From Candidatus Latescibacterota bacterium (GTDB lineage: Bacteria > Latescibacterota > UBA2968 > UBA8231), in assembly GCA_965248355.1 (NCBI GenBank), contig OZ252098.1, positions 1,390,098-1,454,097 on the forward strand: DNA of 64,000 bases, written 5' to 3'. Positions 4,026 through 61,810 of the stretch are shown here, one piece after another; within the stretch, counting starts at the first letter, position 1; the number at the start of each line of letters is the position of its first letter. The translations under genes were made by a program, and so were the position numbers. Below the pieces are notes generated by a model. The model did not search any database. It saw only the letters and a list, made by a program, of their open reading frames with translations, and was not told where the DNA came from.

Positions 4026-4934
4026 ATGCCATACGATCCGGAGAACCGCACCTTCGACTGCGACCCCACCCTGAACGACTCCCAGGTCCTCGAGTTCTGC
4101 CGCGAGGGCTACCTGATGCTCCCCGGCGCCGTCCCCGACGAGATCAACGAGCGCGCCTGCCGCTACCTGAACGGGGAGATCCCCGTCGATCCGTCGTGGA
4201 TGCCGGAGGGCCTGACCATCGAGGAGCTCGAGCGCATGCGCGGCACCCACGAGCCGAGCGGGATCCTGCTCGAGGACTGGTTCGTCGAGCACGTGCTGCT
4301 GAACCCCGCCCTGGCCGGGGCCATGCGCTCCCTCCTCGGCGCCCACGTCGGCCTGCCGGTCCTCGTCAGCAACCACAGGGTCGAGTGTCCCGGCGAGGCT
4401 CAACGCTGGCACCACGACGCCGACCGGGTCTTCGGCCCCGAGCTGGAGTTCGCCGAGGTCTTCTACTTCCCCCAGGACACGCCGCCCGAGCTGGGGCCCA
4501 CCGAGATCGCCCCGCGCACCCACATCTCCCGCAGCGACGGCGACTTCACCGGCGAGGGCGTCCTCGCCGGGGGGCCCGCCGGCACCCTGGGCATCCACCA
4601 CCAGAGCATCCTGCACCGCCGCGGCGCCTCCACAGCCACGGGGCTGCGCCACATGCTCAAGTACAACTACTGGCGCACCTCGCCCCCCTGCCGCGACTGG
4701 ATCGACGACCCGGAGTTCGACCCGCGCACCGCCACGTACGGCGGCCACGCCCACTGCCAGTACGTGGCCCACATGTTCTGGTGGCTCCAAGGCAAGGGGG
4801 ACGAGTACCGCATCATCGGGGGCCAGGGCTGGCCCTTCCGCACCCCGAACCAGATCGGCCCGTCCTACGGGTACGGACGGCCCGAGGGATACCAGCCCGA
4901 CTGGCGCCGGAACCCGGACGGGTACTCGCGCTGA
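4026..4934 (+). CDS. Phytanoyl-CoA dioxygenase (PhyH)-family Fe(II)/2-oxoglutarate oxygenase
   Basis: 'HHDAD...H' 2-His-1-carboxylate arrangement and overall PhyH-like layout. Confidence 0.65.
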   Translation: MPYDPENRTFDCDPTLNDSQVLEFCREGYLMLPGAVPDEINERACRYLNGEIPVDPSWMPEGLTIEELERMRGTHEPSGILLEDWFVEHVLLNPALAGAMRSLLGAHVGLPVLVSNHRVECPGEAQRWHHDADRVFGPELEFAEVFYFPQDTPPELGPTEIAPRTHISRSDGDFTGEGVLAGGPAGTLGIHHQSILHRRGASTATGLRHMLKYNYWRTSPPCRDWIDDPEFDPRTATYGGHAHCQYVAHMFWWLQGKGDEYRIIGGQGWPFRTPNQIGPSYGYGRPEGYQPDWRRNPDGYSR

Positions 4935-5019
4935 GGCCAGGGTAGCCGGGGGCCCTTTGCGGGCAGCCGAGTCCCCGTGGGTCTCGTCAGCCCGGGGTGC
5001 CCGACCTCCTACCGAATCA

Positions 5020-5240
5020 GGCCGAGCTTTCCGACCCGGACCTGCTTGCCGGCGACGAGGCGGTAGAGGTACAGCCCCGAAGCGAGGGGCGGCCGGCTTC
5101 GTCGGTGCCGGACCAGACGCGGGTGTGAAGCCGGGCGTCAGGATCTCGCCGCGACCAGTTCGGTGACCCGCTGACCCGCGGTGTTGTGAATGGCCAGAGT
5201 CACCGGCGCGGCCTCCGGCAACTGGAAGCGCAAGGTGGTT
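5020..5240 (-). pseudogene. Degraded C-terminal remnant of a T9SS/FlgD-Ig-like C-terminal sorting-domain protein
   Basis: Minus-strand translation gives '...VTLAIHNTAGQRVTELV...' and 'SGLYLYRLVAGKQVRVGKLGLIR*' across two frames, with an internal stop. It resembles the intact CTD at 62794–63402. The remnant abuts the IS256 left end. Confidence 0.4.
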
Positions 5241-5409
5241 TCGGAGTTTCTTCGCTACCCTCGAAACCGACTTGCCGGACCGTCATGAGCTACTATCGAA
5301 AGGTGTGGAAAAAGAGAAAAGGCGACCCTACCCTTCCTAATTAGCAGCACACCACGAACGGCCCGGGTGACGCCGGGCCTGGAAGGAGAGAGTCGCCGTG
5401 AAGGAATCT

Positions 5410-6774
5410 GGCTCATCCGGGATTACTGTGGGTAGCCCCAACATGTTGTGGTCGCGGGTAGAGGTCGAGTCCGCCGCAATGGAAGTAGATGGCGGTCTGG
5501 AAGTTCGTGCGGTTGCGATAGCCTCGGGCCAGGCGCTTGACCTTCTCCACCTGGGCGTTCACCGCCTCGTTGAGGGCGTTGGTGATCCGGTGTCGCAGGT
5601 AGGTCAGGATGTTGTCCAGGCGCCGCTTCAGCGTGCGGGCCACGGCGATCACCGGCGGCAGACGGCTATGGGTGGCCCAGAAGTACCAGCGTCGGAAGAA
5701 GCGACGGGCCCACCCTTCCCGGCGGTAGGTCCACAGCTGGCGCAGATTCTCCTTCAGGGCCCAAGCGCGGCTGACCTGCAGGTCCATGGACCGCAACTCC
5801 TCGAACCGGGGCAGCAGGGCCTCGGGGATCCGGTCGGGGTGGTAGAGCCACAGATACTTGGTCCCCGTGAGGCACCTCGTCGTGCTGGGCCCGCAGCTTC
5901 TTGTGTTCTTGGCGGCGCACCCGGTCGACGGCCTCATTCATCAGTCGCAGGACGTGGAACTTGTCGAACACGATCTTGTCCTGGGCGTCGGGCACCCAGG
6001 CTTTCACGGCCGCGATGTAGGGGTCGTGCATGTCCAGGCAGATGGCCTCGATCCGCTCCAACTCCTCTTCGTCGAAGGGGAGGAAATACGCCTCCAGACT
6101 CTCCCGGCCCCGACCGTCGGCCACGTGTTCCACGCTCTGGGTCTGCAGGTCGCAGACCAGGGTCATGTACCGGTGGCGCTTGGCGAAGGCCTTCTCGTCG
6201 ACGCCGAGATGGACCGGCACCTTCCACACCTTACGGCGCTGACCCCGGTCCACGGCGCGGCCCATGACCCCCCCACAGCGATCCCAACTGAGCCCGGTGA
6301 GGCGGCTCACCGCCTCGAGGCTGCACTCCTTGGCCAAGTCGATGACGTGGGCCTCCAGGGCCCGGGTCAGACCCGAGCCGGGCTCGGCCCACTCGGAGGC
6401 GATGGAGAGCACGCCGTGGACCCGGCACTGGACCCGGGGCAGGCGGGTATGGACGTAGGTCGGCAGATCGCAGGTGTCCAGATGGCGCCATTCCCGCTCG
6501 GGGGCATGGTCGTAAACGGGACACCAAGCGTCACAGCGCGGGCAGCGCATTTTGACCCCGCGCTCATGGTCCACGTAGACATCGACCCGCTCCTGGTCCT
6601 GGAACCGCACCTCGAGCACGATCCAGGGGCGCTCGATGCGAAGCAGACGGGCATAGAACTGCTTGAGGTCGTCCATGGGCGGCCCTCCCCGATGGCGGTG
6701 GCAAGGGACTGCGAGGCTCGATCCCTATGATACCACAACATCTTGGGGGTCCCCACTCTCAACCCGGATGAGCC
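5410..6774 (-). mobile_element. ISL3-family insertion sequence with 8-bp target-site duplication AGGAATCT
   Basis: 43-bp terminal inverted repeats: 5410–5452 'ggctcatccgggattactgtgggtagcccc...' matches the reverse complement of 6732–6774. The 8-bp direct repeat 'aggaatct' lies at 5402–5409 and 6775–6782. Insertion site is about 30 bp upstream of the IS256 transposase start. Confidence 0.8.
5413..6676 (-). pseudogene. ISL3-family transposase, frameshifted (two overlapping ORFs of 336 and 174 aa)
   Basis: The N-terminal ORF has a zinc-finger motif 'CPRCDAWCPVYD' and a DDE region. The C-terminal ORF carries '...YRNRTNFQTAIYFHCGGLDLYP'. The frame changes around 5860–5940. Confidence 0.75.
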
Positions 6775-6806
6775 AGGAATCTACGCTGGCGTTCCCCCCC
6801 GCGTCC

Positions 6807-7136
6807 ATGCCCAGTTGGGAGACCTTGGAAGGCTGGGCTCGCTCTCAGATCCAGGACCTGCTGCAGCGAGTGTTGGAGGAGGAGGTGACCGAAGTGCTGG
6901 GGCGCACGCGGTATGCGCGCCGATCGGCGGTGGACGGCCCTCCGGGCTCGCGCAACGGCTATGGCAAGCCGCGGCGGCTGTCCCTGATGTCGGGCACCAT
7001 CGAGGTAAGACGGCCGCGGGTCCGGGGGCTGGAAGAGCGCTTTGAGAGCCGCATCCTGCCGCTGTTCCAGCGACGCACCCGCGAGGTGACCCAGCTGTTG
7101 CCCGAGCTCTACCTGCACGGGCTGTCGCAGGGCGAC
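6807..7136 (+). pseudogene. IS256-family (Mutator-type) transposase, N-terminal fragment cut by the IS3 insertion
   Basis: 'NGYGKPRRLSLMSGTIEVRRPRVRGLEERFESRILPLFQRRTREVTQLLPELYLHGLSQGD' is a typical IS256 N-terminus. The reading frame is broken after GD at 7136. Confidence 0.7.
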
Positions 7137-7194
7137 TGGAGTTGCCCCCGTTTGGTGGACATCCCCGATATTTGGGCAAAAGGAGGATGTCCTC

Positions 7195-7509
7195 ATGCCA
7201 CAGTCTCACCGTCCGTATCCGCCTGAGTTCCGCCAGCAGATGGTCGAGCTGGTGAGAGCCGGGCGGACCCCCGAGCAGTTGAGCCAGGAGTTCGAGCCCT
7301 CGTCCCAGGCGATTCGCAACTGGGTGCGCCAGGCGGATCGCGACGAGGGGCGGGGAGCCGAGGGAGTCACCCGCGCCGAGCGGGACGAGTTGCGGCGCCT
7401 GCGCCGGGAGAACAAGCGCCTGCGCACGGAGCGGGAGATTCTGTCAAAAGCCGCCACCTGGTTCGCTCGGGAGGCCGATTCGAGGTCGTCGAGGTCTTCG
7501 GATTCGTGA
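7195..7509 (+). CDS. IS3-family transposase OrfA (HTH)
   Basis: 'ELVRAGRTPEQLSQEFEPSSQAIRNWVRQ' HTH motif and a leucine-zipper-like C-terminus. An RBS 'aaaggagg' precedes the ATG. Confidence 0.8.
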   Translation: MPQSHRPYPPEFRQQMVELVRAGRTPEQLSQEFEPSSQAIRNWVRQADRDEGRGAEGVTRAERDELRRLRRENKRLRTEREILSKAATWFAREADSRSSRSSDS

Positions 7510-9185
7510 GCGCTCACCAGGATCAGTATCCCATCGCCACCATGTGCCGCGTCCTGGGCGTCTCCCCCAGCGGGTACTATGCGTGGCGCCGCCGGCAGCC
7601 GTCGGCGCGCTCCTTGTCCGATGCGCAGTTGACGCCCTTGATCGACCAGGTCCACACGTGGTCGCGAGGCACCTACGGGGTGCCGCGCATGGTCCGGGAG
7701 TTGAGAGCTCGCGGACAGCCCGTCAACCCCAAGCGCGTGGCTCGCCTGATGCGGGAGGCCGGCTTGCAGGGCGTCAGCCGCCGCAAGTCGACGTGTACCA
7801 CGCGGCGCGACGCGGACGCTCCGGCGGCGCCCGACCTGGTCGACCGCGACTTCGCGGCGGCCGGTCCGGACGCGTTGTGGGTGGCGGACATCGAGCGCCA
7901 CGAGGCGCTGTGGCACCGTGCGGTGGTGAAAGGCCACCGCCTTCAGTCCGTCGCAGCGGGCTGACGTAGCTGAGGGCAGCCGGATCCCAGGGGACGCGGG
8001 AGAAGGCGACAAGCCGCCCTGACAAAGCCGGGACGGACCAGCACCGTCAGATGGGCCGGGTCCGGCGAGCGAGACAGGAAGGTGTACGCAAGGAACCAGT
8101 GTCAAACGCCCCTCAGGAGACCCACCAGCTCGAACCTGACGGATCCGGGCTGGGTTGCGGTGCGCACTGGCACCGGAGTGGTGCCGGAAACTCCCGCGTC
8201 GGTCGATGTCGCCGGCAGGGAGGCCACGGGGAAGGACTGCGGCGTAACCGTGGCGATACCGCAGGGGCATAGTTGGGCACCTCCCCTGTCGAACGGTGGA
8301 ACAGGGAACGTGGGAACCCTCCCAGCGGCCCCACCCCGGTCCGCTTCGGGCGGACCGGCGGGAAGGCTCGTCGCCAGCTGATGCCGAGGGGAGGGGGCGG
8401 AGGGGCCGTAGTAGTCCGAGGCCGGGAAAGCCGGTCACATGGCGAAGGACCCCAGCGTGTTCGCAGCCACGATACATCCCATGGAGGCCGCTGATGAACA
8501 TCGGCGCACCGTGGCCCGACCTCGAAGAGGCCGAGCCCCGGGTACGAGGAATGCAATCGAAGCTGCACCAGTGGGCGGTGGCCACTGAGCCGCCACCCAT
8601 CGGCATGAACACGGGGAGAGCCGGATGCGGCGAGAGTCGCACGTCCGGTTCGGAGGGCGGACCGCAGAAACCCACTCGTTGCGAAACGAACAGGGCGCTG
8701 CGGTCCGACCCTACACCTACGTGCCGACGTGGTCTGGATTCCTGTATCTGGCCGTGGTCCTGGACGCCTGGAGCCGGCGCGTGGTGGGGTGGGCCATGGC
8801 CGGTCATCTGCGGACGGAGTTGGTCGTGCAGGCCTTGGACATGGCCCTCGGGCAACGACGTCGTCCGGAGGGGGTGATTCATCACTCGGATCAGGGATGC
8901 CAGTATTCGTCGCTGGCCTTCGGGCGCCGTTGCCGGGAGGCCGGGGTGCGGCCGTCGAGGGGCTCGGTGGGCGACTGCTACGACAACGCCCTGTGTGAGA
9001 GCTTCTTCGCCACCCTCGAGTGTGAGCTGCTCGACCGTCGCTGCTTCCCGACGCATGAGGTCGCCCGCCGCGAGATTTTTGACTACATCGAGTCTTGGTA
9101 CAACCGGCATCGCCGTCACTCGGCCCTCAACTACGAATCGCCGATGAACTTCGAACGCGCCCATGTCCAGCCGCAGGTTGCCTGA
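7506..9185 (+). CDS. IS3-family transposase OrfB (integrase/DDE), split by an 822-bp intron-like insertion
   Basis: Exon 1 (7506–7892) ends '...DALWVADI' and exon 2 (8715–9185) starts 'TYVPTWSGFLYLAVVLDAWSRRVVGWAM...' (rve domain). Exon 1 is in the −1 frame relative to orfA. The insertion is a multiple of 3 (822 bp) but contains stops. Removing it gives a canonical 286-aa OrfB. Confidence 0.7.
7893..8714 (+). mobile_element. ORF-less (intron-encoded-protein-deleted) group II intron inserted in IS3 orfB
   Basis: Canonical domain V at 8618–8651 (GAGCCGGAUGCGGCGAGAGUCGCACGUCCGGUUC: AGC triad, GNRA loop). A domain-VI-like helix (ggaccgcag/ctgcggtcc) has a bulged A 7 nt from the 3' end '...CCCUAC'. 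The boundaries exactly restore the OrfB frame. A vestigial ORF from 8494 encodes the RT/maturase N-terminal motif 'RVRGMQSKLHQWA' and then runs into domain V. The 5' end is GAGCG rather than the consensus GUGYG. Confidence 0.7.
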
Positions 9186-9403
9186 TGCGGGATCTGTTCG
9201 CCATGAAGCGGATCTTCCCGGGCCCTCCCGGGACCAGCCGGTGCTCTCCCGACCACCCGGTCTCTCGCACCGGGCCGGGGCGCCACACCGGTACCCCGAG
9301 CTCCACCCGGGCTCCGGGGCCGGGGTACTCCCACTCTACAACTTCCACATTCGGCAAAACCTGCCGAAAGCACTTAACTGTCCACCGTACGGGGGTAGCT
9401 CCA

Positions 9404-10254
9404 GACTTCGAGTTGGCCTTGCGGGGTCTGCTGGGGGGCGCCCCTGTCGGCCTCGTCCATCGCCCGTCTGCGGGCCACGTGGGAAGAGCAGTTCGAGACC
9501 TGGCAGCAGCGGCGGCTGGACGACCGGGAGTTGGTCTACGCTTGGGCCGACGGTATCTACGTGAAGGCCGGCCTGGAGAAGGACAAGGCGGCGTTGCTGG
9601 TCGTCATCGGAGCCCTGAGCGACGGCCGCAAGGAGATCCTGGCGATCCGTGCTGCGCGATCTTCGGGACCGCGGGCTGCCGGCGCCGCGGTTGGTGCTGG
9701 CCGATGGCGGCCTGCCGATCTGGAGCGCCGTCGACCAGGTCTGGCCCGAGGCCGCGCAGCAGCGCTGCTGGAATCACAAGATCCTCAACGTGCTCAACGA
9801 CCTGCCCAAGCGCGTGCAAGGCGCCGCCCGGGCGCTGCTGACGCAGATCCCCACGGCCAAGACCCGTCTGCAAGCCCAGAGACGACGCGACCGCTTCGTG
9901 GCCCGCTACGGCGAGGCCTATCCGGCCGCGTCGGCCACCCTCGAGCGCGACTGGGAGCGCATGGTCACGTTTTGCGACTTCCCGGAGGCGCACTGGAGGC
10001 ACCTGCGCACCACCAATCCGGTGGAGAGCCCCTTTGCCTCGGTCCGTTTGCGGACCAACGCGGGCAAACGCTACAAGCGGGTACAGGGAGCCACCGCCCT
10101 CATCTGACGCGTGCTGAGGGTGGCCGAGACACGATTCCGCAAGCTCAACGCGCCGGAGCTCCTGCCGGCGGTCTACGCCGGACGGAGATGCCAGGACGGC
10201 CAACCCGTCCAAGGGTTGTCCTCCACCGAGGAAGGAATCAAGAGGGCCGCCTGA
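9404..10254 (+). pseudogene. IS256-family transposase, C-terminal portion (frameshifts and an in-frame stop)
   Basis: Three frames carry, in turn, 'DFELALRGLLG', 'LVYAWADGIYVKAGLEKDKAALLVVIGALSDGRKEILAI', and 'CWNHKILNVLNDLPK...FPEAHWRHLRTTNPVES'. A TGA lies at 10105–10107 where a W is expected. The conserved tail 'RVLRVAETRFRKLNAPELL...' continues to 10254. Confidence 0.7.
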
Positions 10255-10627
10255 TCTCGTTTACACACCTTTTGACAGGACCTCCCGTCAGCGATTTGCC
10301 TGACGCCGCTGCAGGCCTTCAAGAAGGGGGTCCCAACCAAGCCCCGAGCCAAGGAGGCTGCCATGCAGAAAATCGCCGCCTAACCCTCATCCCCGAGCAG
10401 GGGCGAGTGTCAGGTCATTACCGTCACTGTAAACCCCGAGCCCAGGTCATTACCATCACTGCACACCAGTTCGTTAACCCTCTGGCGCTCGCGCAGGGCC
10501 TCCAGAGCCACCTTGGCTCCTTGACCTGTGCCGAATGCGTCTTCTTCCTCGCCATCCAGGCCCCTCCGGACAGTGGTTCGGTGCACGCAAAGTCTCGCTT
10601 AACCACCTGTCCAGGACTTGGGGTGCA

Positions 10628-11809: not shown

Positions 11810-12337
11810 TGTCTATTGCCCATAGCCCAAACTGACTGCGAAGATTGGACATTCCGCTACGTCGAGGATACCTGGCGTTCTTGAAGAAAAAGAGAAGAGA
11901 GGATGGCCTCTTCCTTTGGGACGAAGAGTTGCACGGGGACGGAATGAACACGGGCTACCCACCAGCAACCCCACCCTGAGGACGCTCACCGCTTGCCGGC
12001 ATTCGCACTGACCCGTCTGAGCCGGACTTCGGCGCCGTCGATGGCGGAACGATTCTCAAGCAAGCGGCCGGTCCATGCGAACCCGCCGTCGGGGAGAGCT
12101 CCTGCGGTGCGGACCATGAATCCGGGTGGGAGTGCTACAAGCGAGTCCAGAGGGCGACGAGCTCTCATGTGCCGGGTCCTGAGAGTGGAGCAACGATTCC
12201 GGAAGCCCAACGCCCGCGAAACTCTTGGCTGCAGATCTGCGCCGGTCGGAGATACCAAAGGCGGCCAACCGTTCCAGCAGGGGGCCTCAACCAAGGAACG
12301 AAGTCGAGGGTCGCCCGATCTCCTTCTTGGCCACACC

Positions 12338-20689: not shown

Positions 20690-20800
20690 TTCCGGGAATA
20701 CTCCTCGAGGCTCTCCCGGCCCCGGCCGTTGGCGACGGTTCCACGCCCGATGGACCGACTCCACGGTACCAGAGCATCTTGGGGCGCCCAGAGCCAAGAG
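20690..20800 (-). pseudogene. ISL3-family transposase fragment
   Basis: The nucleotide sequence 'ctctcccggccccggccgttggcgacg' and the translation '...GRGRESLEEY' parallel the ISL3 copy at 6090–6120 ('DGRGRESLEAYF'). Confidence 0.4.
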
Positions 20801-21389
20801 CGGGGTGACGTCTACGTGTACCATGAGCGCCGGAATCTCCCCCAACCGGGGAATGGCGCCATTCTGAACACGCGCGGCCGCCCCCCAAGTGCGTAATCCG
20901 CGGCCATCTTGGAGGTGCTAGGCCGAGCCCCGATGTGGGCGTCAGTGCGATGGGATCGATCAGATTTCCCACCCTGTGCGATTGAATGTCATGGCTCGCC
21001 ATCTGGCCTAGGCAGCCCTGGAAAGGGGACGCTGGCTTGAGAAATAGTAGCTATGGTGTGGCCTCTGACATTAAAGAGGCTCCGAGGGGAGGTCCTGTGC
21101 AATCGAGAAACCGAAATTAGGCGGTCCTTCTCAATCTCTACCGGTTGGCCGTCCTGGAACCTCCTTATATAAACCTCGGGCTAAGAGGTCCGTCAAGGGA
21201 CCACCCAGATTCGCGCACCCCGGATTTGGTCGGGGTCGGTGGTACCGGATCGGTTCTCCCCCTCCTGAGATGAGGTGCACCGAGAACGGGGACCTGCACC
21301 GCAAACCCCGGAGCGGCCCCCGGTCCAGCCAGTGACGCTTGGCGAACGAGGGAATGGGTGTGAGGGATGGTCTTGGCCTCCTTCCGCTC

Positions 21390-21570: not shown

Positions 21571-22749
21571 CTGCTAGTGTCATGTCGTAGAAATTACTGT
21601 ACATCTTCATGAGGATGCTGTAGGTTTCTCTTATTCTCTTTCCGAAAGGAGAAACCTATGGCGAGGGGACGACCGTTACCGGCGATAGAGTTGAGTCCGT
21701 CGGACCGGGACCAATTGGAATCGATGGCCAGATCACGGAGTCTCCCCCACGGGTTGGTGCGCCGAGCCGAGATGGTTCTGCTGGCCGCCGACGGCTGGCC
21801 CAATCAGGCGGTCGCCGCCGCGGTAGGGGTGACGCGGGCGACTGTGGGCAAGTGGCGGCGACGCTTTCTCGAGGGCGGGCTGCCGGGCTTGCATGATGAG
21901 CTGCGTCCGGGGGCGCCGCGATCGATCACGGATGAGCAGGTCGCCGAGGTGGTCTACAAGACCCTGAAGACCAAGCCCAAGGACGAAACCCAGTGGTCGG
22001 TGCGCTCCATGGGCCAGGAAACCGGCCTGTCCAAGGATGCGGTACATCGCATTTGGCGCACCTATGGTCTGCAACCCCACCGACACAAGCACTTCAAGCT
22101 GTCCACCGATCCCTTCTTCGTGGACAAAGTACGGGATATCGCCGGGTTGTACCTGAATCCCCCGGAGCACGCCATGGTTCTGTGCGTGGACGAGAAGAGC
22201 CAGATCCAGGCCTTGGAACGAACTCAGCCGATGCTGCCCTTGGGCTTGGGATACGTGGAAGGGGTTACGCACGACTACAAGCGGCACGGCACCACCACCC
22301 TGTTTGCCGCCTTGGACGTGGCCACCGGCGAAGTGATGACCCAGTGCAAATCCCGGCATCGTCACCAGGAATTCCTCCAGTTCCTACGCCACATCGAGAC
22401 CAACGTGCCCGAGGATCTCGATATCCATCTCGTCGTCGACAACTACGCCACCCATAAGCATGCCAAGATCAAGCGATGGCTGGCCAACCGTCCCCGGTTT
22501 CACGTTCACTACACCCCCACGTATGCTTCGTGGCTCAACCAAGTGGAGATCTGGTTCGGGATCATCACGCGCCAGGCCATTCGGCGCGGGTCGTTTCGGA
22601 AGGTCCCGGAGCTGGTCGAGCGGATCGAACGGTACACCGACAAGTGGAACGCCAAGGCCCGGCCCTTCGTCTGGACGGCGACGGCCGATTCCATCCTCGC
22701 CAAGGTCAAACGACTTTGTGAGCGAATCTCTGCGACATGACACTAGCAG
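21571..22749 (+). mobile_element. IS630/Tc1-mariner-family insertion sequence, intact
   Basis: Terminal inverted repeats 'ctgctagtgtcatgtcgtagaaatt' at 21571 match the reverse complement of 'gaatctctgcgacatgacactagcag' at 22724–22749. A single 360-aa transposase ORF lies inside. Confidence 0.7.
21658..22740 (+). CDS. IS630-family transposase (DDE_3)
   Basis: Winged-helix N-terminus, '[12 protein letters not shown]' and '[17 protein letters not shown]' DDE-region motifs. RBS 'aaaggag' upstream. Confidence 0.85.
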
Positions 22750-22846: not shown

Positions 22847-24284
22847 ATGTCGCTGAGCCGACGACCCGAGAGCCAGCAACAGGAGATGTGGGTGCCGACC
22901 CACACGCTGCCGGAGGCGCCGGGGTGTCCGTTCTACACGCAACTGATTCAGTTGCTGCTGGCGGCGCATGGGTTTGACCGCTTTGTCGAGTCTCGGTGCG
23001 CCCCGTATTACGCCGAGACGCTGGGCCGGCCGAGCATCGCGCCGGGGGTCTATTTCCGCATGCTCTTGATCGGCTACTTCGAGGGCCTGGGCTCGGAGCG
23101 GGGCATCGCCTGGCGGGTGGCCGACTCGGTGTCGCTGCGCCGTTTTCTGGGCTACGCCCTGAGCGAGGCCACGCCGGATCACTCGAGCCTGACGCGCATT
23201 CGTCAGCGTCTGCCGTCGGAGATCTACCAGGAGGTGTTCAACTGGGTGCTGACCGTGCTGGCCAAGGAGGGGCTTTTGAAGGGCAAGACCCTGGCGGTGG
23301 ACGCCACGACCCTGGAGGCCAACGCCGCCCTGCGCAGCGTCGTGCGGCGGGACACCGGGCAAGGCTACCGCGAGTACCTGGAGGACTTGGCCCGGGCCGA
23401 AGGAATCGAGACGCCGACGCGCCAGGACCTGGCCCGGCTCGACAAGAAACGGCCGCGCAAAGGCTCCAACCAGGACTGGAAGCATCCCCGAGGATCCGGA
23501 GGCCCGCATCACCAAGATGAAGGACGGGCGGACCCACCTGGCGCATAAAGCCGAACACGCGGTCGATCTGGACACCCAGGCCTTGGTGGCGGTCCAGGTG
23601 ACCGGCGCCGACGAGGGAGACACCTCGTCCCTGTCTTGGACGCTGATCCAGAGCGATCTGAATCTGCAGGCCGTGTCGCAGGATCCGAAAGCCAAGAACC
23701 ATCTGCATGGCCAACCGATGTCGGAAGTGGTGACGGACAAAGGGGTATCACAGCAACGACACGACCAAGAGGCTGAAGGGCGCTCAGATTCGCGGCTACC
23801 TGTCCGAGCCCGACCGGGGGCGCCGTCGGTGGAAGGACCGGGCCGCCCAGGCGGCCGTGTATGCCAATCGACGCCGGATTCGAGGGCCCCGGGGCCGCGC
23901 CCTGCAACGGCGTCGAGCCGAATGCGCGGAACGCAGTTTCGCTCACACCTACGAACGCGGGGGGCTGCGACGGACGCACCTGCGGGGCCACGCCAACATC
24001 TACAAGCGGCTGAGCCTTCATGGCAGCGCCTTCAATCTGGGCTTGGCCATGCGGAAGCTCACCGGCTGCGGGACCCCGAGGGGTCTGCGGGCACTGGGGG
24101 CCGTTTTTTCGGTCTTCAAGGCGGGTTTGCAGGTCGCTCGGGCCCTCTCGCGTCGCGCCGGCGGCCTCTTCCTCACCTGGGTCCGGGATCGATTCCTCAT
24201 CCGTTGCCGCCGCCTTCACCCAGAGCGACCGGACGTGATCCAAAACGTGGCTTTCTCAACGGGCTGCTAGACCTCATGTATTGA
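22847..24284 (+). pseudogene. IS5/IS1182-family transposase, frameshifted (at least 3 frames)
   Basis: Frame 1 has the DUF772-like N-terminus '...YFRMLLIGYFEGLGSERGIAWRVADSVSLRRFLG'. Frame 2 has 'KDGRTHLAHKAEHAVDLDTQALVAVQVTGADEGD'. Frame 3 has '...AVYANRRRIRGPRGRALQRRRAECAERSFAHTYERGGLRRTHLRGHANIYKRLSLHGSAFNLGLAMRKL'. Confidence 0.65.
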
Positions 24285-60977: not shown

Positions 60978-61329
60978 CGGCCGCCCGACGCCTGGGCGCC
61001 TGAGACCCGTTGCAACCCCCTCTCCGTTGAAGATCACCGCCCTCGAGCTGACGCCGGTGCGCACCCACCGCGAGATGGGACGCCGCGCCCCCAGCGATCC
61101 CGAGCCGGCCGAGTCCCGCCACGTGGTCGTGCAGCTCCACACCAACGCGGGCGTGACCGGGCTCGGCGAGATGTCGGATGTGGGCTGGGAGTTGGACGCC
61201 GGATCCGCCGCCCGCCTGCAGGCCGCCCTGGAGCCGCTGCTGCTCGGCGCCGACGCCTGGCGCCGGGGCCCGCTGCTGGAAGAGCTATCGCGCCGTCCCT
61301 GGGGGAAGTGTACCCCGTCAACTGGACAG

Positions 61330-61810
61330 GAATTGGGCTTGTACAAGCGAGAGTCTCGAGGGGAGGGTCCAGTTCGGCGAGGAATTCTTCAAAGCTCATC
61401 GGGCCCAGATGTAAGTATTGAATGCGCCCTACGGGCATGGTAAAGGTGTGGGAGCCCGCGGCGACAACCGGCAACTCGGGGTGGTCCTCGAGGAAATAGC
61501 GCAGGGCGGGCAGGGCGTGGGGGGTCGCCTGGATTTCGTCGAGGAAGAGTATGCTGCCCGGTGCCAACAGCGGTTGATCCAGGAGCCCTTGGAGTTCCCG
61601 GCGGATGTGCCTCAGGTCCAAGGTCTGGAACACGGGGTCCAGGTCCGGGTGGCGCTCGAGGTTGATTTCGTTGAGGTGCAGGTGATTGGACTGGGCGAAT
61701 TGTCGCACCAGGGTGGATTTGCCCACTTGACGGGCCCCGCGGATGACCAGCGGCTTTCGCTGTGGAGCGGCCAGCCATTTGGCCAGAGCGCGTTCAGCCG
61801 ACCTGTACAT
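61330..61810 (-). pseudogene. N-terminal fragment of a COG1373-type AAA+ ATPase (AAA_14/DUF4143 family), embedded antisense in the enolase gene
   Basis: 'MYRSAERALAKWLAAPQRKPLVIRGARQVGKSTLVRQF...ILFLDEIQ...YLHLGPMSFEEFL' (Walker A 'GARQVGKST', Walker B 'FLDE'). Truncated after about 160 aa. Confidence 0.5.

Follow-up and report, generated by a model that had tools for sequence, protein, structure and literature searches.

What order of events could leave pieces of three insertion sequence (IS) families and a ribozyme interleaved at one bacterial locus? The question is raised by a stretch of 64,000 nucleotides (nt) from a Candidatus Latescibacterota bacterium (NCBI GenBank assembly GCA_965248355.1, contig OZ252098.1, positions 1,390,098 to 1,454,097 of the forward strand). 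We refer to this whole stretch as the window and count coordinates from its first letter unless another contig is named. We read the locus as a record of successive insertions of mobile DNA, with a probability of about 0.9: an IS256-family element, now dead, later received an ISL3-family element and an IS3-family element, and orfB of the IS3 element holds a group II intron without an open reading frame (ORF). A first-pass annotation, made from the letters and their ORFs alone, had proposed this nest, and all four elements, their boundaries, and their duplications were found essentially where it had placed them.

Excision of the inserted elements restores their hosts

The boundaries were recovered by repeat search, direct inspection of the sequence, and ORF listing (Table 1). 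We excised in silico the ISL3 and IS3 elements together with one copy of each of their target-site duplications. This left an IS256 remainder of 1355 bp, or 1398 bp once 43 deleted bases were restored; elements of this family measure about 1.3 to 1.5 kb. Bases 1 to 1355 of the remainder align end to end with intact copies of 1396 to 1398 bp from metagenome contigs, the closest of which, L013, is 98.3% identical over the aligned bases; four others (L014 to L017) are 89.5 to 89.7% identical. The terminal inverted repeats match at 20 of 25 positions, the left end being GAGCTACTATCGAAAGGTGTGGAAA, and the encoded protein is 93% identical to intact proteins of 417 to 418 amino acids. The GTG start at 5398 is the one that gene callers use for the intact relatives. 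The family models agree, with 251.9 bits for NCBIfam transpos_IS256 (cut-off 150) and 169.9 bits for Pfam Transposase_mut. Alignment with L013 shows two deletions in the window copy, of 5 nt after 9434 and of 38 nt after 9646. At 10105-10107, a tryptophan codon, TGG, has become TGA, so that the protein reads ATALI, stop, RVL where its relatives read ATALIWRVL. These are the frameshifts and the tryptophan-to-stop change called in the first pass. The IS256 element is dead several times over.

The ISL3 element, whose 1365 bp fall within the range of about 1.2 to 1.5 kb for its family, has inverted repeats of 43 nt that match at 84% of positions. It is 95.9% identical to an intact copy of 1364 bp (L098:914-2277) whose own 8-bp duplication is TCTTTGAG. 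The two copies differ in length by a single extra C, at 5872, which breaks the transposase frame, as had been annotated; the element is dead if this single-base insertion is real. Its transposase scored 302.4 bits against NCBIfam transpos_ISL3 (cut-off 180) and matched Pfam DDE_Tnp_ISL3, HTH_Tnp_ISL3, and Zn_ribbon_ISL3. The element had been described as lying just upstream of the IS256 transposase start. That holds for an alternative ATG at 6807, 24 nt downstream, but in the ORF that begins with GTG the insertion falls after codon 4.

The inverted repeats of the IS3 element, TGGAGTTGCCCCCGTTTGGTGGACA and TGGAGCTACCCCCGTACGGTGGACA, match at 21 of 25 positions, and its ends read TGGAG...CTCCA; its GAC duplication has a length within the 3 to 4 bp of the family. 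Its excision restores the IS256 transposase as SQGD^FELAL (^ marks a junction here and below). It reached 349.6 bits with NCBIfam transpos_IS3 (cut-off 160), and its orfB reads as DD(35)E, with 35 residues from the second Asp to the Glu. With both repeats, orfA, a predicted frameshift motif, and a DD(35)E orfB, the element looks structurally intact apart from the intron. Excising the intron in turn fuses DALWVADI to TYVPTWSGFLYLAVVLD, so orfB is split exactly at ADI^TYV. The first catalytic Asp belongs to the W..DITY motif, and the intron separates the Asp-Ile codons of this motif from its Thr-Tyr codons. The uninterrupted site was seen in an intron-less copy on contig L101, described below, and in 80 more distant IS3 relatives (at most 78% protein identity) that we fetched, all of which read through WVADITYV. 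The inverted repeats and duplications of the ISL3 and IS3 elements pair as annotated, and curated NCBIfam cut-offs, Pfam, and Rfam agree on the families of the three IS elements and the intron.

Each part also occurs on its own. Relatives stand alone for IS256 in L013 to L017, for ISL3 in L098, and for IS3 in L018 and L101, and relatives of the intron lie in other transposase genes in L001 to L010. Therefore, the locus is not one composite element. IS elements are a classic source of mis-assembly, and repeats wrongly joined by an assembler might in principle imitate a nest. However, each insertion is flanked by duplicated sequence of its host element, and excision restores the host frame exactly, which is not expected from mis-joined repeats. 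Since the duplications are clean and the host frames return, mis-assembly is ruled out as the cause. A similar but different nest, of IS256 with another IS and an IS3, is also present in an independent assembly, and we consider an artefact scarcely credible.

Table 1. Coordinates of the nested elements and of the features within them
Feature	Position	Strand	Remarks
IS256 left flank repeat CCGTCAT	5280..5286	.	pairs with right flank
IS256 segment 1	5287..5409	+	left inverted repeat 5287-5311, leader, GTG start 5398, first 4 codons
ISL3 target-site duplication AGGAATCT, left copy	5402..5409	.	perfect, 8 bp
ISL3-family element, 1365 bp	5410..6774	-	inverted repeats 5410-5452 and 6732-6774
ISL3 transposase	6676 down to 5413	-	frameshift from extra C at 5872
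ISL3 target-site duplication AGGAATCT, right copy	6775..6782	.	perfect, 8 bp
IS256 segment 2	6783..7136	+	transposase codons ~5-122; ends in GAC duplicated by IS3
IS3 target-site duplication GAC	7134-7136 and 9404-9406	.	3 bp
IS3-family element, 2267 bp (1445 bp without intron)	7137..9403	+	inverted repeats 7137-7161 and 9379-9403
IS3 orfA	7195-7509	+	matches HTH_Tnp_1
IS3 slippery motif A AAA G	7446-7450	+	-1 frame open from motif
Intron-binding site 1 (IBS1) GACAUC	7887..7892	+	last 6 nt of 5' exon; Asp-Ile codons of W..DITY
ORF-less group II intron, 822 nt	7893..8714	+	inside IS3 orfB
Exon-binding site 1 (EBS1) GAUGUC	8205-8210	+	hairpin loop
Intron-encoded protein remnant, first 30 codons	8494-8583	+	rest of ORF lost
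Intron domain V	8618-8651	+	Rfam and covariation
Intron domain VI	8657-8713	+	13-pair basal helix, 8657-8669 with 8698-8711
Bulged branch-point A	8708	+	7 nt from intron 3' end
IS3 orfB	stop 9183-9185	+	matches rve, HTH_21, rve_3
IS3 non-conserved spacer	9186-9378	.	193 nt, orfB stop to right inverted repeat
IS256 segment 3	9407..10284	+	three lesions, original stop 10252-10254, right inverted repeat 10260-10284
IS256 right flank repeat CCGTCAG	10285..10291	.	pairs with left flank

The IS256 element arrived before the ISL3 and IS3 elements

The clean duplications around the ISL3 and IS3 elements consist of IS256 sequence. Therefore, IS256 came first, and ISL3 and IS3 came afterwards. The first-pass annotation had called the order of events datable; what can be read is this relative order, and not a date in time. 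The most probable course is as follows. An IS256-family element inserted 3' of a PhyH-like gene, on the border of a low-GC island. An ISL3-family element then entered the first IS256 codons, oriented the opposite way and duplicating 8 bp, and an IS3-family element entered at about codon 122, oriented the same way as IS256 and duplicating 3 bp. The disrupted IS256 element decayed through two deletions and a stop codon, and the ISL3 element gained its 1-nt frameshift.

The intron could have been the last arrival, or it could have come together with the IS3 element; both are compatible with the window, and the earlier annotation was right to leave the choice undecided. If the intron rode in within the IS3 element, an IS3 unit bearing the intron would have transposed as DNA into IS256, and the intron would not have been last. 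We give this almost an even chance. The lineage of the intron lives in IS3-type orfB genes across many genomes, so intron-bearing IS3 units exist, and IS3 transposition requires only the element's ends and a transposase acting in trans. Nevertheless, a related genome carries an intron-less IS3 element that is 93 to 99% identical, so this IS3 does not always carry the intron, and the window itself offers nothing to tell hitch-hiking from later retrohoming.

That intron-less element came from an exact look-up of the window OrfA, which led to contig L101 from a related genome whose backbone is 85 to 94% identical to window 55.6-58.1 kb. Over its two exon parts, the L101 element is 98.9% and 93.5% identical to the window IS3 without the intron, and its empty intron site is GCGGATATC^ACCTACGTG. 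It lies in a nest of its own (L101 2248-5548) made up of an IS256 left end, a UPF0236-type transposase gene, the intron-less IS3, and IS256 sequence equivalent to window 9489-9649. Thus, nests of IS256 with IS3 recur in this group of organisms. We considered whether L101 represents an earlier state of the same IS256::IS3 insertion and rejected this, because the right flank of its IS3 corresponds to window 9489 and not to 9404. Separately, 57 nt at window 61304-61360 are 93% identical to L101 2529-2585, just 5' of the UPF0236-type transposase gene; despite this match, there is no UPF0236-type transposase gene within the window.

The two independent IS256 copies bear on another claim of the first-pass annotation, that the site is a long-lived insertion hotspot. 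The IS3 element sits at different positions in the window copy and in the L101 copy, with TTCGAG following it in both, and IS remnants are concentrated along the two borders of the low-GC island. These observations would fit a true hotspot, at which insertion is directed by sequence, as opposed to a neutral sink. Yet a 6-nt motif seen in two cases carries little weight, and target sequences differ among the three elements. Insertions that survive in already dead DNA explain the pattern without targeting: a dead IS offers a neutral place to land, where copies can accumulate at an ordinary insertion rate. We regard targeting as unlikely and the word hotspot as an overstatement.

We also looked at the 193-nt spacer between orfB and the right inverted repeat of the IS3 element. 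Spacers in this IS3 clade range from 50 to 290 nt (element lengths 1253 to 1491 bp) with no sequence conservation. The idea that the window spacer is a passenger RNA or a further insertion was dropped, since it is not conserved with respect to the closest relative and its fold z-score is only -2.7.

The intron has an apparently sound ribozyme

Is the insertion in orfB still a group II intron in more than name? Across the whole window, the sole Rfam family above its gathering score was RF00029, at 8616-8714 (63.3 bits, cut-off 40, E = 4e-10). The Rfam models for classes D1 to D4 gave no match to the intron, even at E <= 1. Domains I to IV were recognized by homology: the 5' 690 nt are 74 to 82% identical to related introns, among them full-length ones encoding TIGR04416 proteins, and the closest is the full-length copy in L007 (about 80 to 82%). 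The residual domain IV is 35 nt long in the window, compared with 1351 to 1369 nt in the full-length relatives.

Pairing in domains V and VI reaches 98.9% over eight relatives, and 13 pairs have changed on both sides. None of 500 shuffles reached this covariation, and slid controls gave 31 to 50%. The window intron carries a private compensatory C-G pair in domain VI. Its EBS1 and IBS1 pair at 6 of 6 positions. In a more distant intron, L012, the same loop reads CUUUUUG opposite a different exon, CAAGAAG, and pairs at 7 of 7; this covariation supports the assignment of EBS1. The 3' end of the intron, AC, fits the AY rule. We then compared changes at otherwise invariant columns, defined on the other five deep-branching members: they amount to 6.7% in the window ribozyme and 5.3 to 7.5% in full-length relatives, so the window copy has no excess of decay. 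The ribozyme therefore appears, as far as its letters tell, to be sound.

For a full OrfAB transposase to be made, the intron would need to be spliced out. Neither splicing nor any new movement of the intron would be expected unless another locus in the genome provides the protein of a related intron in trans.

Several points weigh against our reading of the nest and its intron. The flanks abutting the IS256 element agree at only 6 of 7 positions, an imperfect repeat in a family that makes duplications of 8 to 9 bp; among its intact relatives, perfect duplications of 8 bp are found in L013, L015, and L017 and of 7 bp in L014, and L016 has none. The ISL3 frameshift could be a sequencing or assembly error if the assembly was made from long reads. 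The 5' end of the intron, GAGCG, is not the canonical GUGYG. There is no reverse transcriptase gene within the 64-kb window, and the trans-acting protein is only assumed. Finally, splicing is predicted from sequence only; the ligated exon junction across 7892/8715 would read GCGGACATC-ACCTACGTG.

The unusual 5' end is shared by close relatives. The A at intron position 2 is invariant in all eight members of the IS3-targeting subclade, and the distant L011 and L012 start GUGCG. Yeast aI5gamma also starts GAGCG. In the minimum-free-energy fold (window 7894-7909), intron bases 2 to 7 (AGCGCC) form a hairpin with bases 12 to 17 (GGCGCU). In the GAGCG subclade, U17 is a possible partner for A2; in L011, the canonical U2 faces a C at position 17 and cannot pair.

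Related introns share the target site and have lost their ORF more than once

Relatives of the intron were retrieved by scanning one genome per species for the exact domain V, which gave eight loci. In addition to the window copy, the 5' junction could be read in seven copies (L001, L002, L003, L004, L005, L007, and L010), each of which lies at GA(C/T)AT(C/A)^AC, between the Asp-Ile and Thr-Tyr (or Thr-Lys) codons of a W..DIT motif in an rve-type transposase gene; the window intron occupies this homing site of its lineage. The host genes themselves are diverse; in their 3'-exon part, those of L001/L004 and L003 match the window orfB at only 34 to 39%. The L002 intron has AT-rich flanks. An ORF of 1351 to 1369 nt in domain IV is carried by L001/L004, by L007, and by L010, a copy on a Rhodococcus plasmid. 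The L007 product is a group II reverse transcriptase/maturase (TIGR04416, 369 bits) without an endonuclease domain.

Among the seven complete related copies that the genome scan retrieved, counting the duplicate pair L001/L004 but not the window copy, two are ORF-less (L002 and L003) and one is a 418-nt stump (L005). The three ORF-less copies, in the window, L002, and L003, keep 35, 35, and 32 nt, respectively, between the conserved CTGCACCA.TGGGC and domain V, and they differ in their deletion end points and junction sequences. The window intron, at 82% identity to L007, shares only 76 to 77% with the other ORF-less copies; L003 shares 94% with the full-length L001. Since the nearest kin are full length and the junctions differ, ORF loss has been recurrent. 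A shared origin of the three ORF-less copies was rejected on these pairwise identities and on the differing end points.

The ORF-less copies have something else in common. All three keep about 190 nt of the 5' part of domain IV, most of which is also kept in L005. Within it, the window and L002 copies retain a hairpin for which the full-length relatives show covariation; its arms read GAUCAG/CUGAUC in L007, GGCCG/CGGCC in L001, GACGG/CCGUC in L010, and GGUGGC/GCCACC in the window. A role of this part as the protein-binding region would explain why it is kept.

An intron without its ORF might instead be a decaying remnant. A full-length intron would have homed into orfB and lost its ORF in place, and it would now be inert, with orfB permanently inactivated. 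This is a serious possibility, though we lean away from it. ORF loss has occurred independently in the lineage, with the window copy nearest to L007 and L003 close to L001; deletion end points vary between copies; L005 has decayed further, to a stump; and the elements around the window intron are all decaying. A remnant of this kind would not be expected to look as the window copy does: conserved ribozyme positions show no excess of changes, domain VI has its compensatory pair, EBS1 and IBS1 pair perfectly, and both intron ends are intact. Nor would decay account for the 5' part of domain IV that is kept in the window, L002, and L003, or for the co-varying hairpin in the first two.

Three of the related loci have features of their own. 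The L005 stump (4088-4505) comprises the first 90 nt of the intron, the 5' part of domain IV, about 70 nt of the 3' end of the ORF, and domains V and VI; it lacks most of domains I to III, and its host IS3 orfB is 72% identical to the window orfB. The ORF-less intron of L002 (362-1182) is GC-rich in a locus of 45% GC, and its EBS1 and IBS1 pair at only 4 of 6 positions, which suggests a recent horizontal arrival or an insertion at a non-cognate IS3-type site. In L010 (1856-6395; Rhodococcus rhodochrous plasmid pNit), only ACCT of the 3' exon is followed by different sequence and a second ltrA gene; a second intron may have inserted beside the first. No ORF-less copy was found among PLSDB plasmids, and a scan of viral contigs with the 15-mer GAGCGCCACGAGGCG gave 120 chance hits, none of which holds the intron.

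Taken together, eight copies place the window intron in a sublineage that starts GAGCG. This may be a distinct sublineage of actinobacterial type, which would be a specialist for the W..DI^TY site of IS3-type (rve) genes and would repeatedly spawn ORF-less derivatives that keep the 5' part of domain IV and depend on a relative's protein in trans for splicing or mobility. As a whole, we hold this proposal to be possible but doubtful. The hosts are very different: metagenome-assembled genomes (MAGs) labelled Acidimicrobiales, Actinomycetes, and Spirochaetia, and also Rhodococcus.

Comparison with known introns

The nearest parallel in target choice is E.c.I4, or IntA, which together with S.f.I1 represents a class A intron of Escherichia and Shigella that homes into the IS3-family elements IS629, IS911, ISEc16, and ISEc31 (PMC3522654; PMC3552965). 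Like the window lineage, E.c.I4 has no endonuclease domain and targets IS3-family orfB at the stretch around the first catalytic Asp; in Escherichia coli MG1655, a fragment of it lies in IS911 orfB after WCGDVTY. However, its site is 7 nt further 3', after ACC TAT A, whereas the window intron follows GAC ATC. Its first bases are GUGUG rather than GAGCG, its protein, ykfC, shares only 39% of residues with that of L007, and its ribozyme shares only a short stretch with the window intron family. Because the site, the 5' end, and the protein differ, we take E.c.I4 to be a separate lineage that has converged on the same target region. A search of E. coli genomes with a full-length relative matched nothing beyond domain V, which belonged to an unrelated intron in a DUF932 gene. 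Within the 5' ribozyme part of the E.c.I4 fragment, upstream of ykfC, lies the small RNA EyeA (L100 4081-4155; E. coli MG1655, 272580-272654).

RmInt1 of Sinorhizobium meliloti resides in ISRm2011-2, and the efficiency of its splicing has been discussed as a control on the spread of the host IS (PMC4238363, PMC3035460). As with the window intron, its home is an IS transposase gene, and its protein has no endonuclease domain. It differs in that ISRm2011-2 is not an IS3-family element and that RmInt1 is a different intron with an ORF; we set it apart by description.

Reviews describe bacterial group II introns without an ORF as rare and as found, in most cases, alongside relatives able to supply a protein in trans (PMC4424553), an action on ORF-less introns that was shown experimentally in Thermosynechococcus elongatus (PMC2882425). 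The T. elongatus introns resemble the window intron in that the ribozyme is kept, the protein is lost, and dependence on a related protein is expected. By contrast, the window lineage is of actinobacterial type, targets IS3, and shows recurrent ORF loss, and its trans protein is only assumed.

Further relatives are actinobacterial plasmid introns of Rhodococcus, Streptomyces, and Mycobacterium, annotated as ltrA, whose ribozyme is 66 to 75% identical to that of the window and whose protein is 54 to 75% identical to that of L007. The R. rhodochrous pNit intron starts with GAGCG and lies at WVADI^ in IS3 orfB, as the window intron does. The plasmid ltrA copies cover at most 84% of the 822-nt query and thus carry the ORF, unlike the window intron. 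L011 (Mycobacterium) and L012 (Streptomyces) have the canonical GUGCG start and other insertion sites.

The nest lies at the edge of a low-GC island

The genome has a GC content of about 70 to 75%. Between 10 and 23 kb, the GC content drops from about 0.72 to 0.53-0.62, and beyond the nest a low-GC island at about 10.3-21.5 kb encodes TPR, LRR/PD40, DsbA-like, and glycosyltransferase proteins. The fall in GC and the IS remnants at the island edges fit the position at the edge of a low-GC island that had been assigned to the nest. On the other side, synteny with L099, a metagenome contig that is 93% identical, stops at the stop codon of the PhyH-like gene (4934), whose closest named homologues are in MAGs of Latescibacterota, Chloroflexi, and Poribacteria (66 to 72% identity). 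Next to it, all that 5012-5248 (minus strand) encodes is a stretch of some 80 residues from the end of the neighbouring gene, with 37% identity to its L099 counterpart. Since only this C-terminal remnant is left, the neighbouring gene was truncated at or near the IS256 insertion.

Other traces of mobile DNA lie nearby. Just to the right of the IS256 element, at 10411-10467, are two 25-nt direct repeats, CAGGTCATTACCGTCACTGTAAACC and CAGGTCATTACCATCACTGCACACC, which are 88% identical and 32 nt apart. Within the island, a second and more divergent IS256-family remnant (12080-12325) matches nt 1141-1332 of the nested element at 74% in DNA; in protein, the identity is about 40%. At 20694-20833, two short pieces (46 to 54 nt, 83 to 85%) in opposite orientations resemble internal ISL3 sequence. 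The far edge of the island holds an apparently intact IS630-type transposase gene (DDE_3 and HTH, 21658-22740) with a frameshifted DUF772/IS5-like transposase beside it (22847-24284).

Discussion

Insertion of IS elements into dead IS elements and of group II introns into IS transposase genes are well-known phenomena. The main use of the locus described here is for teaching, since its nested mobile elements can be told apart cleanly and completely. It is also a warning for annotation, as gene callers would give five or six transposase fragments here. The GAGCG sublineage, with its DITY site and its recurrent ORF loss, is a modest extension of the precedents set by E.c.I4 and RmInt1.

ORF-less introns may be common in the IS3-targeting lineage, unlike the general rarity reported in reviews (PMC4424553). 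Their apparent rarity may arise partly because surveys begin from the reverse transcriptase gene. If the ORF-less copies are spliced in trans, they would couple production of the IS3 transposase to a second mobile element. Such a coupling would add a little to the knowledge gained from E.c.I4 and RmInt1 without amounting to a new principle, and it would make the ORF-less derivatives a conditional switch on IS3 transposase production.

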